IMG/VR virus record: IMGVR_UViG_2737471832_000006
Length of the DNA: 5,899 bases
Origin: a virus
Taxonomy: Duplodnaviria; Heunggongvirae; Uroviricota; Caudoviricetes
Strand: one strand, 5' to 3'
Notes under the pieces: model-generated
The model's database searches: none
Told to the model about the DNA's origin: nothing
What the model saw: the letters and a program-made list of their open reading frames with translations, nothing else
Position numbers and translations under genes: made by a program
Part shown: positions 2,011-5,899 of the stretch, piece by piece
How the letters are laid out: every line of letters begins with the position of its first letter
Numbering within the stretch: the first letter of the stretch is position 1

Positions 2011-2069
2011 TTGCTTAACCCTATAAAAAAATTTAGCAAACTCTACAATATAGCCCCTCTTTAGTCTAA

Positions 2070-2432
2070 TCAGGCGCTGTATCCTGAAATCGGGTACCGA
2101 TAATATCCCTCCTGCAGCCATGTGTTGGTGTTAACAAGATACTGTGTATCAATTGAATCCGTCAGATTGCAAAAGTTGATGCCTCTTTCGCGCAGTTCCT
2201 CCACCAGCACGACAAGATGCCGCATACTGCGCCTCAGTCGGTCCAGTTTCCAGACCACCAGCGTGTCACCTGCCGATAATGTCCTGAGCAGCTTTTTCAG
2301 TCCTGGTCTGTCGGACTTTGTACCGCTTATCTTGTCTTCAAAAATCAGCTCGCATCCTGCACAGTTCAACGCATTACGTTGTAGATCGGTGTTCTGGTCA
2401 TTTGTTGATACGCGAACATAGCCAATAAGCAT
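2070..2432 (-). pseudogene. pin: Serine DNA invertase (Pin/Gin/Hin/Cin family), 3'-truncated; only the N-terminal catalytic core is retained
   Basis: Translation from ATG 2430-2432 (SD AGGAGGAG just upstream) reads MLIGYVRVSTNDQNTDLQRNAL...GDTLVVWKLDRLRRSMRHLVVLVEELRERGINFCNLTDSIDT, the hallmark N-terminus of Pin/Gin/Hin invertases including the catalytic Ser in the RVST motif. After about residue 97 (near 2141) the frame runs into unrelated sequence (QYLVNTNTWLQEGYYRYPISGYSA) and stops at 2070-2072. The conserved SSPMGRFFFH continuation, E-helix and C-terminal HTH domain are absent. Confidence 0.8.
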
Positions 2433-2461: not shown

Positions 2462-2935
2462 ATGCCATTTGCGCGCTATTTCTGCATTTTCATAAACGTT
2501 CAATTGGGAGAAGCGGCAAAACGTAATGTCGGAACCGGTAATAATCAACTCCCAGACATGTCCGCATTTGGTATGTCGCGAAACGGACAAACTGCCTGGG
2601 ATATTCTCCCAAATGGTATGATTCGACAGGTTGGTACTGTGACACTGACGCCTGTTGGTAATTTCAACGCAATTACTCTTGGTGGAGTGCTGTACTACAC
2701 CCATTACTACAGGGTTAATTTCCCCAGACAATTCCCAAATGCACAAATAGCAACGCTGGCAACACTAGCGAGTTACAGCTTTTCGACCCAGTCATCAATG
2801 GCTGGGAAATCACTGGCAACGCATCGCGATACTGATTCTGGCACTGACGTATCAAGAACGCGATTCACTGTGTCGTATACGACACCCAATCTCGGCGAAA
2901 TTCCGACTTTGCATTTTGAAGCAATAGGATACTAA
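2462..2935 (+). CDS. Alternative tail-fibre C-terminal cassette (S'v / StfE-like), promoterless; expressible only after inversion fuses it to the constant part of stf
   Basis: The ORF ends ...LGEIPTLHFEAIGY, paralleling the Stf C-terminus ...DCCFIALGY. Its N-terminal part contains QLGEAAK...LPDMSAFG, paralleling Stf GLGETINK...ISDVSAFRNALQLG just after the predicted crossover site. It is in opposite orientation to stf/tfa and adjacent to the invertase, as in Mu G and e14 P segments. The ATG at 2462 has no convincing RBS, so the true coding part probably begins at the crossover site near 2500. Confidence 0.55.
   Translation: MPFARYFCIFINVQLGEAAKRNVGTGNNQLPDMSAFGMSRNGQTAWDILPNGMIRQVGTVTLTPVGNFNAITLGGVLYYTHYYRVNFPRQFPNAQIATLATLASYSFSTQSSMAGKSLATHRDTDSGTDVSRTRFTVSYTTPNLGEIPTLHFEAIGY
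2487..2512. repeat. Candidate degenerate invertase crossover site (partner of the site at 4021-4046), invertase-proximal end of the invertible segment
   Basis: ttttcataaacgttcaattgggagaa matches the reverse complement of 4021-4046 at 17 of 26 positions and encodes the shared LGE junction. The AAACC-NN-GGTTT core is degraded, consistent with a frozen switch. Confidence 0.3.
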
Positions 2936-2937
2936 AT

Positions 2938-3171
2938 ATGGAGAATATGTATTTCAGCCCAACGACCGTTGGTTTTTATGTTTCTGAACAAGAGCGACCT
3001 GATGATGCGGTTGAAGTCTCGCCAGAGGTGGAGGCATTTTTGAGGGAGTGTGTTATCTGGGGAGCGGATACATTTAACGTAGAGCGAGATGCAGCAACGG
3101 TGACATATCCAACAGAACTGCTTGAATATGTCACCACCTACAACGCCCCCGTTAAATATCCTGCGGATTGA
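2938..3171 (+). CDS. Short ORF (77 aa) in the position of the alternative tail fibre assembly gene (U' / TfaE-like); possibly a truncated or divergent chaperone
   Basis: ATG at 2938 lies 2 nt after the stop of the S'v cassette, with AGGA about 9 nt upstream. It is convergent with tfa, and the two 3' ends overlap by 20 bp (3152-3171). It lacks the C-terminal KYRVLL-RVD motif seen in the Tfa on the other strand, so the assignment is positional only. Confidence 0.35.
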   Translation: MENMYFSPTTVGFYVSEQERPDDAVEVSPEVEAFLRECVIWGADTFNVERDAATVTYPTELLEYVTTYNAPVKYPAD

Positions 3172-3562
3172 CAGGCCATACGGGTTTTGCTGTATCAACG
3201 CGCATCAGCAAGACCCGGTATTTTTTCCATTCAGATAACGCGGCGGTTTCTTCTGCCGTCGCGATTTCCGCATCAAAAGCATCCTGTCTCCAGGCTATTT
3301 CCTTATCAGCCATAGAACGCAATACCGTTCTTTTCTGTTCAGCCTGAATAATCTGTTGTTCAGCGGAGAGTGGCGGGATATCAATCCACGCAGGATTACC
3401 ATTTTTATCAGCCCCCAGCGTTTTGCCTTGTGGCGCTACGCCTGTGTAAATTGCCATTGTTTCATCATCAACATCAACGCCATTTTCAGGCCATGAACCG
3501 GCGCTGATATATACCTCTTTTAGTGCTTTCGGATAGAAAGAGCCTTTATAAAATTTATTCAT
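3152..3562 (-). CDS. tfa: Tail fibre assembly protein (Tfa, lambda Tfa / Mu U family), 136 aa
   Basis: ATG at 3560-3562 (MNKFYKGSFYP...) lies 2 nt after the stf stop. The C-terminus ...EWKKYRVLLMRVDTAKPVWPVNP matches the conserved Tfa C-terminal motif (lambda Tfa ...WKKYRVLLNRVDT...). The ORF track's earlier start at 3592 is a TTG inside the end of stf. Confidence 0.8.
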   Translation of the reverse strand: MNKFYKGSFYPKALKEVYISAGSWPENGVDVDDETMAIYTGVAPQGKTLGADKNGNPAWIDIPPLSAEQQIIQAEQKRTVLRSMADKEIAWRQDAFDAEIATAEETAALSEWKKYRVLLMRVDTAKPVWPVNPQDI

Positions 3563-3564
3563 TC

Positions 3565-5899
3565 TTAATACCCCAGCGCGATAAAACAACAATCTTCGGT
3601 GCCCTCTCCGGATGGCGACCAGTTCTGAATACTGATATGCGTTCTGCTGGCAATACGCACATTCATCGCGGCATTGTAGCCAGATGTTCCACGGTTTCCG
3701 GTCGCAAATAAGCCTGCATAGGGAAAAGCAAATGGTAAGGCATATCCAGCATCAGCTCCCTTTTGTGTTGCCACCGTTCCCCACTGCAACATAAGTTTCA
3801 CCGGGTTTCCTGTCGTCGCAATGCATGGAATGTAGATGTAGCCATTCCCTGACATCATTGACCTGAAGCTGTCTAAACCCAGTAACTTCGAGGCATTATC
3901 TGCTCCAACATCTCGTGTTGCGGCGGTCCCTAACTGGAGCGCATTTCGGAAGGCTGATACATCAGAAATATCAGCTCCATTAGCCGATTTCTGCATAGCT
4001 CCGGAGGCTTTATTTATCGTTTCGCCCAAACCAAGGTATGCGAGAAGACCAGCTACATCCTTTCCACTCAAATTAGTCAGCGTATTGTCCAGCGGTTGTT
4101 TGCCCGCCAGTGCGCTCTGTACTTCGCTTTTGCTGTAGGCATCCAGATCTTTAGGCGTAAGCGTAATATCCTTCGTGCCGTCAAACGGAACGCCGTTGAT
4201 ATTCCGTGCAGTCTGTAGTTTTGTGGCAGTTGCAGCATTACCAGTGGTGTTCTGATTACCCGTAGTGTTTACACCTGGAAGGTTAATATTTGCAGAACCG
4301 TCGAAAACAACTCCACCGATAGATCTTGCCGTCTGCAATTTCGTGGCTGTACTTGCATTACCATTCAATGAACCAGTTAATCCACCTGTAACAGACAACG
4401 GACCTGAAACTGTTCCTCCGGTTGTTGGCAGTGCTCCAATATCTAACGGCGTCGGTTTCTGATGTGTGCTATACATCGTATAAACAACACCATAGGTAAC
4501 GCTGGAAGGCTTACTCGCTGAATATGTTGGCGAGGTATAAACAGAAACTGACGCATTTGCAGTACAATCCCAATGGATATTTACACTCGTCGCATAATTG
4601 CCAATCTCAACGTAAATATCATATGTATCGCCGGATGTGTTGATCCAGGCGAAATTCGTTAATCCGACGGCTGTACGCTTCCACAAAGCCCCGGTAATTC
4701 CTTTGGGGTTTCCATTGCCTGCTCGTAGAACCAGTTCTGAAATGCCTGCCTGATGTGGGGAACCGACGTTGTAACCAGCGCCACCAATCAATGCGATGTA
4801 AACGATGGAACTCGCCTGTGGCATGGTTACCGTTGCTAATTTGAACCAACCAGCACCACCGCTGAATGACATTGTTGTTGAGTTAAGCGTACCAATATCT
4901 TTCGGCGTCAGTGTTATATCCGCTGAAAGCGCCTTACCATTCACCTTACGGGCAGAAGGTACCCGACCATTCGCATTATCATTAGCTGCTTTCACTGCTT
5001 TCGGTGTCGCGGCAAGCGTTTCAGATGCGCTGTTGGTTGCACTACTGAGCTGGACAATTCCTTTTTGTGCTGTCGTAGCGTCCTGTGCGGTGTATTTCCC
5101 GTTAGCCAGGTCATACGCGGCCTTAACGGCTTTTGGCGTTGCCGCCTGTGACTCGGAAGTGCTGTTGGTCGCACTGCTGAGCTGTACTACCCCCTTTTTC
5201 GTCGTGCTCGCATCCTCAAGCGCCACAGCGGATGCAATATCCTCTGCCCGTTTTGCTGCTGTCTCGGCGCGCGTTGCCGCGGATTCCGCCGTACTTTTGC
5301 TCTGAGCTGCCGCCGTCGCACTGCCAGCTGCCTCTGTCGCCTTCGTGGATGCCGTCGTGGCGCTGCCCTTCGCTGCTGACGCTTGTCTGGTCGCCTCATC
5401 TTTTGAAGCAGACGCCGATGATGCCGATGACGCCGCCGAACTGGCGGACGATGCGGCAGCCGTTTTTGAGGATTCTGCACGGGTTTCCGACGCTTTCGCG
5501 TTCGTTTCGGATGTCTTCGCTGCGGAAGCTGACCTCGCTGCTGCGCTGGCCTGTTCAGTGGCTTCGCCAGCCTTCGTTGTGGCTGTTGAAGCAGACGATG
5601 CGGCACTTTCTGCCGACTTTCCGGCAGCGGTGGCACTGGCTGAGGCCTGCCCGGCACTTGTTGATGCGGCACTGGCAGATGATGCAGCCGCTGTTTTTGA
5701 GCCTGCCGCAGCTGAGGCACTCTGTCCCGCTGCCGTTTCAGAAGACCTGGCGTTCGTCTCGGACGTTTTTGCCGCCTTCGCGGAATTTCCTGCCGCCGTT
5801 GCCGAGGAAGCGGCACTACTGGCGCTTGATGATGCGTTCGTTTCTGATGATTTCGCTGCCTCTTTTGAGGCCGCCGCATCCCGGGCTGAGGTGGCAGCT
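3565..5899 (-). CDS. stf: Side tail fibre protein (Stf-like), 5'-partial; gene continues beyond the window end
   Basis: This minus-strand frame is open from the window edge to the stop at 3565-3567; I checked every codon from 5227 to 5899 and found no stop. The ORF track's start at 5226 is only an internal GTG. The translation of 5227-5899 is Ala/Ser/Thr/Lys/Glu-rich with ...AAKTSETNAKASE...-type repeats typical of the Stf N-terminal shaft. It is followed by the duplicated KG(V/I)VQLSSATNS-SE--AATPKAVKAA motif found in lambda Stf / Mu S / P2 H fibres, then a Gly/Thr/Asn-rich distal region ending ...IALGY. The 230-aa Arg-rich ORF (5187-5879) and the 166-aa plus-strand ORF (4805-5305) are alternative-frame artefacts of this gene. 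Confidence 0.9.
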   Translation of the reverse strand, partial: AATSARDAAASKEAAKSSETNASSSASSAASSATAAGNSAKAAKTSETNARSSETAAGQSASAAAGSKTAAASSASAASTSAGQASASATAAGKSAESAASSASTATTKAGEATEQASAAARSASAAKTSETNAKASETRAESSKTAAASSASSAASSASSASASKDEATRQASAAKGSATTASTKATEAAGSATAAAQSKSTAESAATRAETAAKRAEDIASAVALEDASTTKKGVVQLSSATNSTSESQAATPKAVKAAYDLANGKYTAQDATTAQKGIVQLSSATNSASETLAATPKAVKAANDNANGRVPSARKVNGKALSADITLTPKDIGTLNSTTMSFSGGAGWFKLATVTMPQASSIVYIALIGGAGYNVGSPHQAGISELVLRAGNGNPKGITGALWKRTAVGLTNFAWINTSGDTYDIYVEIGNYATSVNIHWDCTANASVSVYTSPTYSASKPSSVTYGVVYTMYSTHQKPTPLDIGALPTTGGTVSGPLSVTGGLTGSLNGNASTATKLQTARSIGGVVFDGSANINLPGVNTTGNQNTTGNAATATKLQTARNINGVPFDGTKDITLTPKDLDAYSKSEVQSALAGKQPLDNTLTNLSGKDVAGLLAYLGLGETINKASGAMQKSANGADISDVSAFRNALQLGTAATRDVGADNASKLLGLDSFRSMMSGNGYIYIPCIATTGNPVKLMLQWGTVATQKGADAGYALPFAFPYAGLFATGNRGTSGYNAAMNVRIASRTHISIQNWSPSGEGTEDCCFIALGY
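4021..4046. repeat. Invertase crossover site (hix/gix/pix-like 26-bp imperfect palindrome) inside stf at the constant/variable junction
   Basis: TTCGCCCAAACC-AA-GGTATGCGAGAA has the AAACC-NN-GGT(T/A)T core of Hin/Gin/Pin recombination sites (compare hix TTCTTGAAAACCAAGGTTTTTGATAA, recalled from memory). The two half-sites are 9 of 12 symmetric. On the coding strand it encodes LAYLGLGE, the point after which Stf and the S'v cassette diverge. Confidence 0.5.

Follow-up and report, generated by a model that had tools for sequence, protein, structure and literature searches.

A cargo block with a predicted RnlA/RnlB toxin–antitoxin pair in place of the 3′ half of the pin invertase gene in Escherichia coli prophages

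The stretch of DNA analysed here (5,899 nt, hereafter the window; IMG/VR virus record IMGVR_UViG_2737471832_000006) belongs to a temperate E. coli prophage that carries a J-lom-stf tail module and is integrated at ssrA; it is the prophage end near the attachment site. The reading that explains it best, to which we give a probability of about 0.8, is that a block bearing RnlAB sits in a slot between the attachment site (att) and the invertase gene pin, that the 3′ end of pin was lost in one illegitimate event, and that the tail-fibre switch is kept in trans. The att-to-pin slot of this lineage carries a 2.1-kb block consisting of an 89-aa open reading frame (ORF), rnlB and rnlA. In the series of steps that we propose, a single illegitimate recombination would have cost pin its 88 C-terminal codons, which encode helix E and the DNA-binding domain, along with downstream cargo. 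The event would have been either an insertion with deletion or a deletion that joined pin to pre-existing cargo. Afterwards the junction block would have spread among prophage backbones by homologous recombination via the conserved sequences that flank it. The cis elements of the switch survive, namely both 26-bp crossover sites and, by position, a putative enhancer region in the 5′ end of pin, and the segment would still be inverted by an invertase provided from elsewhere in trans.

This leaves current understanding unchanged, as the locus is an instance of known prophage mosaicism and of mosaic turnover at a cargo hotspot. It documents the turnover of defence cargo at a prophage end with both boundaries mapped, and the prophage-borne defence modules would gain a divergent RnlAB allele, which ~1.3% of complete E. 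coli genomes carry.

Layout of the window and the junction within pin

The layout of the window was defined by an ORF listing and Pfam scans. The features are given from left to right on the plus strand.

1-84, no strand: end of ISEc22 (IS66 family), terminal 84 bp, ending ...CGCTTAC; 100% match in 2109 E. coli genomes
85-584, plus: left part of the cargo block, the 89-aa ORF and its flanks (ORF list, phrog_14357)
178-447, plus: 89-aa ORF (orf89); phrog_14357, E 4e-33, function unassigned
585-947, minus: rnlB-family antitoxin gene, 120 aa; PF15933, E 3.5e-24; PDB 6y2p chain C, E 4.4e-51
940-2010, minus: rnlA-family toxin gene, 356 aa; Pfam domains; 71% identity to K-12 RnlA; PDB 6y2p/4i8o
2011-2139, minus: rnlA leader; 2011-2057 homologous to the region upstream of K-12 rnlA (blastn against CP4-57)
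2140-2146, no strand: recombination junction TACTG[T]G, from base-level comparison with the Sanji, LZSFT34, 5CRE51, ETEC4088 and IMG/VR loci
2145-2432, minus: remnant of the Pin invertase gene, codons 1-96, part of the catalytic domain only (tblastn; PF00239)
2462-2935, plus: alternative tail-fibre C-terminus
2487-2512, minus: pin-proximal 26-bp crossover site TTCTCCCAATTGAACGTTTATGAAAA, central AA at 2499/2500; inverted partner of 4021-4046
2500-4033, no strand: invertible tail-fibre segment, ~1.53 kb; inverted relative to 5CRE51 and Sanji
2938-3171, plus: 77-aa ORF in the invertible segment
3152-3562, minus: tail-fibre assembly gene (Pfam hits in the segment: Gp53-like_C, Caudo_TAP)
3565-5899, minus: side tail-fibre gene (stf), N-terminal part beyond the window edge; Pfam Phage_fiber_2, Gp53-like_C
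4021-4046, plus: distal 26-bp crossover site TTCGCCCAAACCAAGGTATGCGAGAA, inside the tail-fibre gene, central AA at 4033/4034

In relatives stf is preceded by lom and J. The genes of the window already have correct labels in RefSeq.

Residues 1-96 of K-12 PinE align by tblastn to the minus strand of the window from 2432 to 2145 with 96% identity, and residues 97-184 (88 codons) give no significant match in any frame of the window. At the DNA level, homology to intact pin genes of E. coli chromosomes, phages and plasmids starts at 2140-2146. The closest intact alleles, those of Sanji and LZSFT34, read ...CATTGGGG TACTG - GTATCAATTG... at the junction, and the window reads ...AACAAGA TACTG T GTATCAATTG... 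on its plus strand. Moving out of pin, one thus meets a shared GTATCAATTG (2146-2155), a 1-nt indel at 2145, a shared TACTG (2140-2144) and then full divergence. On the basis of this base-level comparison with Sanji and LZSFT34, the breakpoint is at 2139/2140, or at 2145/2146 if TACTG is microhomology, and the boundary of the block within pin falls at codon 96/97. The earlier note on this DNA, made from the letters alone, had placed the end of invertase homology near 2141 and inside the invertase coding sequence; tblastn and the base-level alignment agree with it on the position, and codons 97-184 are found nowhere in the window. The same note had named, as a different outcome, a frameshift that restores the Pin C-terminus. 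A tblastn search for such a rescue at word size 2 and E values up to 100 returned nothing credible for residues 97-184, and this test is negative.

The remnant ORF continues beyond the junction through 24 unrelated codons to a stop at 2070. It matches PF00239 (Resolvase) over profile positions 2-106 of 145 only, and its RefSeq name is 'recombinase family protein, incomplete, missing C-terminus'. The motif MLIGYVRVST with the nucleophilic serine (GYVRVS) is present, and helix E and the C-terminal helix-turn-helix DNA-binding domain (residues ~100-184) are absent from every frame of the window. Because these two parts are missing, the remnant is dead and not a functional member of the Din family of serine invertases. 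Three changes specific to it, G67R, R88C and S89N, are found in all remnants and in none of four intact pin genes; G67R turns the conserved DRLGRS into DRLRRS. Together they indicate relaxed constraint after inactivation.

Base composition also changes at the junction. The G+C content is 40.0% in 2011-2145, 40.6% in the whole block (85-2145) and 48.8% in the pin remnant. The description of 2011-2145 as the AT-rich leader of the 356-aa gene was therefore right in part: the gene does start at 2010 and the step in composition is real but modest (40% against 48.8%), and the leader is no richer in AT than the rest of the cassette (40.6%).

The RnlA/RnlB cassette and its neighbours

The earlier note had regarded the cassette beside the remnant as a toxin–antitoxin system, and domain matches agree. 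The 356-aa protein matches PF19417, PF15935 and PF19034 (RnlA_toxin_N, the TBP-like RnlA_toxin and RnlA-toxin_DBD, respectively) and the overlapping HEPN_RnaseLS model PF18869, all above the curated cut-offs, and it matches PDB 6y2p/4i8o over its full length (E 8e-167). The residues essential in K-12 RnlA are R255, E258 and, in an RX4-6H motif, R318 and H323 (PMC8266594); at the aligned positions the 356-aa protein has R255, E258, R317 and H322. The 120-aa product of the neighbouring gene, a match to the RnlB model PF15933, is 69% identical to K-12 RnlB. The two genes are arranged with the toxin first, and 8 nt (940-947) are common to rnlB (585-947) and the end of rnlA. From these matches the pair is assigned to the RnlA/RnlB (RNase LS-type) family of type II toxin–antitoxin systems. 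Neither protein matched PADLOC 2.0.0 at E <= 0.01, nor did the orf89 product match that library, and there was no NCBIfam match for RnlA, RnlB or orf89, so the two libraries contributed no more than Pfam.

RnlAB is an anti-phage system (PMC8266594), and by analogy with its K-12 representative the cassette probably serves in anti-phage defence. It would act both as a type II toxin–antitoxin system and in abortive infection: a labile RnlB would keep the HEPN RNase of RnlA inactive, and an infection that shuts off host expression would free RnlA to degrade mRNA.

The resemblance to the rnlAB locus of the K-12 prophage CP4-57 extends to the three-domain HEPN RNase toxin with its catalytic R, E, R and H, to the toxin-first order with an 8-nt overlap between the genes, and to DNA homology over 601-2057, which includes 47 bp upstream of the rnlA start. 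The allele is nevertheless a different one, with amino-acid identities of 71% (RnlA) and 69% (RnlB) and a DNA identity of 73%. Its place also differs. Here the genes lie at the att-proximal end of tail-bearing prophages beside a pin remnant, whereas K-12 rnlAB lies in the middle of CP4-57; and yfjM is not a neighbour here, an unrelated 89-aa ORF being found downstream of rnlB instead. LsoA of the LsoA-LsoB system of pOSAK1 is only distantly related (E 7.5e-14).

Upstream of rnlA, no homologue of 2058-2139 was found outside junction-bearing genomes among E. coli genomes, phages and plasmids. No promoter in 2011-2145 was scored by a scan for sigma-70 sites. A weak TTGTAG-17-TATAGG, on which we place no weight, can be seen by eye ~9 nt before the rnlA ATG, and it is possible that rnlA is transcribed by read-through from the pin promoter. 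In some records RefSeq annotates a 393-aa protein that starts at 2121, an N-terminal over-extension by comparison with K-12 RnlA. Searches for the context from which the cassette was donated gave matches to the pin part only in the phage collection and in PLSDB plasmids, and yielded only K-12-type rnlA among GTDB species representatives.

The region of orf89 is a module separate from rnlAB, because 97-489 occurs without rnlAB, at 84% identity, in CP093281.1 (labelled as a Pseudomonas silvicola plasmid). The orf89 product has hydrophobic stretches and, as in NCBIfam, found no match in Pfam. Upstream of orf89, a copy of ISEc22 interrupts the cargo block ~50 bp from its left end. This copy is missing from every other junction carrier examined, in which the sequence runs on as cargo block, and it therefore marks the source strain of the window. 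A TTTGTAATGC repeat around orf89 (141-150 and 441-450) coincides with no homology boundary.

The slot between att and pin

The position of the block relative to the prophage ends can be seen in ETEC4088. Starting from ssrA, the order there is a 156-bp copy of the ssrA downstream flank with its terminator, ~50 bp, orf89, rnlB, rnlA, the pin remnant, tail genes, head genes, regulatory genes, the integrase gene and a second copy of the flank, which is joined to ypjA. Identity to K-12 is 91.8% for the copy beside ssrA and 97% for the distal one. Because it is the more diverged of the two, the ssrA-side copy is taken as phage-borne, and the two copies as the att repeats; comparison with K-12 and with the far end ruled out the 156 bp after ssrA as chromosomal flank. 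Since the ssrA-flank repeat is present at both ends and int lies at the far end in ETEC4088, the block lies inside the prophage, at the end opposite int. Its location resembles that of the b region of lambda.

The left end of the block is thus a conserved att anchor, made up of the phage-borne 3′ end of ssrA and the terminator, ~50 bp to the left of window position 85. All loci share the terminator hairpin and diverge straight after its T-run, and homology to the window resumes at 2140. Alignment to prophages with an intact pin, which had been suggested for mapping the breakpoint, gave both boundaries from Sanji and LZSFT34: the 2105 bp found here (~50 bp plus 85-2139) correspond to 4254 bp in Sanji, which hold a restriction-modification (R-M) system, a GIY-YIG gene and the 3′ part of pin. 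As the relatives have the 3′ half of pin and other cargo in this place, the earlier description of a replaced 3′ half of the invertase gene holds, and 'replacement' is accurate for the comparison with intact-pin relatives. A search for direct repeats at the ends of the block, also suggested, was unproductive, its best pair (199-225 and 2120-2146, with a 9-nt exact core and 70% identity over 27 nt) being at chance level.

The same interval holds other genes in other prophages. In Sanji (locus L026, cargo at 3825-7677) the anchor is followed by genes for a type II restriction endonuclease and a cytosine methyltransferase, a GIY-YIG pseudogene and an intact pinE; in LZSFT34 (locus L022, 7171-11953) it is followed by BRO-N, HTH/ImmA, IS3 and GIY-YIG genes and again an intact pinE. 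In both, a LEM-3-like GIY-YIG gene stands immediately downstream of pinE. The slot of O18 contains the anchor, hypothetical genes, a GIY-YIG gene, a DinI-like pseudogene, a DUF262 gene and a truncated pin, and that of e14 has mcrA after an intact pinE, as the earlier note had stated. With the ssrA-terminator copy as one anchor, pin or a crossover site as the other, and four different cargo sets between them, the att-to-pin interval appears to be a variable prophage cargo slot. The view that a cargo hotspot lies beyond the invertible tail-fibre region is thereby supported. Having housed an R-M system, a DUF262 gene, McrA and RnlAB in different prophages, the slot could yield more defence genes if searched.

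Disruption of the invertase by cargo, which had been called unusual, has parallels. In O18 (locus L023, NZ_CP007275.1, 10785-12898) pin is cut at ~codon 41 and adjoins the 629-aa DUF262 gene, which on sequence comparison is an independent breakpoint, and in ST167-type genomes (NDM6) pin is cut at the equivalent of window position 2297 by IS903B. The arrangement in e14 shares with the window the invertible segment, pin, a defence gene and the prophage end, but there pinE is intact and its stop codon precedes the gene for the type IV restriction enzyme McrA, whereas here the boundary is inside pin. The defence hotspots of P2-like phages and P4-like satellites (Rousset et al. 2022, PMC9122126) likewise combine conserved anchors with highly variable defence cargo; here, the phage group and the slot are different, and the pin anchor is eroded in at least two independent lineages. 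We suggest, tentatively, that the att-pin interval of ssrA-integrating e14-like and lambdoid prophages might be a recurrent defence hotspot that erodes the invertase gene, leaving orphan switches that rely on the invertases of co-resident prophages or plasmids. A pin and invertible-segment module, 95% identical, also occurs in a P2-like prophage of SCPM-O-B-12142 (locus L006, 4697-6942) between tail-fibre and tail-sheath genes, the module being common to P2-like, e14-like and lambdoid tails.

The identical junction is present in 72 of 5426 complete E. coli genomes (~1.3%), including JJ1886/JJ1887. The rnlA allele of the window occurs in exactly those 72 of 5426, always with the junction, and the other 363 genomes with any rnlA match have the 73%-identical K-12 type. 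An IMG/VR search gave two contigs with an identical junction. Given that the junction sequence does not vary among the carriers examined and that G67R, R88C and S89N are common to all remnants, the junction probably goes back to a single, old illegitimate recombination event and not to a frameshift. It is joined to at least three phage backbones. The window, L013 and 5CRE51 represent a lambdoid prophage with the invertible segment. Most carriers, such as ETEC4088, have a lambdoid backbone with a fixed fibre, in which pin codons ~26-96 are left and homology ends at 2358, the 5′ end of pin and the invertible segment being absent. The third backbone, in the two IMG/VR contigs, is an e14-like baseplate-type phage. 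As the same junction is joined to different backbones, the block evidently moved among them by homologous recombination through its conserved flanks. In a fourth context the prophage has been deleted, and the pin remnant, rnlAB and orf89 stay beside ssrA. In AHM8C212RI (locus L014, CP104613.1, 5655-7926), an internal pin fragment, rnlA, rnlB and orf89 are found beside ssrA, with an IS3-family transposase gene and csiD-lhgO-gabD upstream; here the toxin–antitoxin cassette has outlived its phage.

Three other origins of the junction were weighed against a single illegitimate event that brought in, or exposed, the RnlAB block. The 1-nt indel at 2145 relative to intact alleles might be taken for a frameshift, or for a sequencing or assembly error, in an otherwise intact pin; yet merely 5 bases of homology lie past the indel, no frame encodes Pin 97-184, and the same junction is present in 72 independent complete genomes as well as in IMG/VR contigs, so that this account has practically no credence left. 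Truncation by a mobile element, as a deletion mediated by ISEc22, or by aberrant Pin recombination at a pseudo-crossover site is very improbable. The ISEc22 end at 1-84 and the IS-mediated truncation of pin in ST167-type copies speak for an element, but none of the other junction carriers has this ISEc22, which is 2 kb away from the junction. Nor is Pin recombination favoured, as no crossover-like site near 2140 exceeds the shuffled expectation: the best matches 15 of 26 positions, and shuffled sequence gives ~16 such hits.

A simple deletion is a possibility to be taken seriously, although we hold it to be the less probable account. According to it, pin was still intact when orf89-rnlB-rnlA lay downstream of it, and its 3′ half was lost afterwards in a deletion that also took the intervening DNA; the acquisition of defence and the loss of the invertase would then be separate events. 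Prophage ends decay by deletion, ETEC4088-type copies have also lost the 5′ end of pin and the invertible segment, and the pin of NDM6 is cut by IS903B; moreover, 2058-2139, with its lack of homologues, could be a leftover of the intervening segment. The allele does not, however, occur beside an intact pin in the 5426 complete genomes (0 found) or in the 10 contexts listed for the exact RnlA protein, which is weak evidence.

Inversion of the tail-fibre segment

The earlier note had concluded that loss of the invertase entailed a loss of host-range switching, and here the data point the other way. The two crossover sites (2487-2512, minus strand; 4021-4046, plus strand) are intact and in inverted orientation, AA is the central dinucleotide of each, and no further site of this kind in the window exceeds chance level. 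By coordinate arithmetic, each orientation of the segment fuses the constant part of the fibre in frame to a C-terminus, the one currently expressed being carried within the invertible segment (2500-4033). In 5CRE51 the segment has the opposite orientation, and an in-silico exchange at the central dinucleotide matches that locus at 650 of 650 positions. The exact product of the exchange is seen both in 5CRE51 and in the L013/L001 pair of loci.

The comparison of two carriers dates the inversion. L013 (GCA_026615615.1) is colinear with the window (99.97% match), and it is identical to 5CRE51 at 7561 of 7561 positions up to the crossover site, a stretch that comprises the adjacent island, the cassette and the remnant. 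There is 1 mismatch in the 1539 bp of the inverted segment, and there are 5 in the 3993 bp beyond. Because these near-identical, junction-bearing loci differ by an exact inversion, a precise site-specific inversion of 2500-4033 appears to have occurred after pin was truncated. An annotation of a truncated recombinase should accordingly not be read as a frozen switch.

A different explanation for the two orientations is that the junction block recombined into prophages of either orientation and that the switch is really frozen. The evident movement of the block between backbones by homologous recombination would provide for this, and in the five complete genomes that have the invertible-segment form, the segment always lies as in 5CRE51 and never as in the window. 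L013 and 5CRE51 nevertheless have the same chromosomal context with opposite orientations, are identical over the 7561 bp to the left and differ at 6 of 5532 positions across the inverted segment and the right-hand DNA, and an import by recombination would need to have been traceless. We therefore consider a frozen switch improbable, and return to inversion in trans.

Since the remnant has neither helix E nor the DNA-binding domain, inversion after truncation implies that an invertase was supplied in trans. In four of the five complete carriers of the invertible-segment form, megablast gave a single match to the 5′ half of pin, so any trans-acting enzyme would be more distant, plasmid-borne or since lost. 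Pin-family precedent exists in PinQ of the Qin prophage, which inverts the P segment of e14 in trans (PMC12529663). There too the invertase that acts on a tail-fibre segment is encoded by another element than the one that carries the segment; K-12 e14, however, keeps its own pinE, whereas here the resident gene is dead and inversion would rely wholly on another element. If so, the receptor specificity of the prophage, or an StfE2-like adsorption block, would hinge on a different mobile element of the same cell. The Hin enhancer lies ~100 bp from a hix site (PMC3798978), and by analogy with that position we infer a candidate Fis-dependent enhancer at ~2345-2410, within the retained 5′ part of pin.

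Two further observations concern the tail-fibre genes themselves. The region that encodes the N-terminal part of stf at 5200-5899 has 60-65% G+C and contains degenerate repeats (families D1-D5) whose start-to-start spacings are multiples of 21 nt (42, 84, 105, 147 and 231); another minus-strand frame at 5200-5899 contains an arginine-rich ORF of 230 aa that is probably spurious. Only the first ~31 residues of the 77-aa ORF at 2938-3171, which belongs to the alternative orientation, match tail-fibre assembly proteins (phrog_188, E 8e-5). As its length of 77 aa is also kept in Sanji and in one P2-like prophage, this ORF may encode a genuine short chaperone and not be a truncation.
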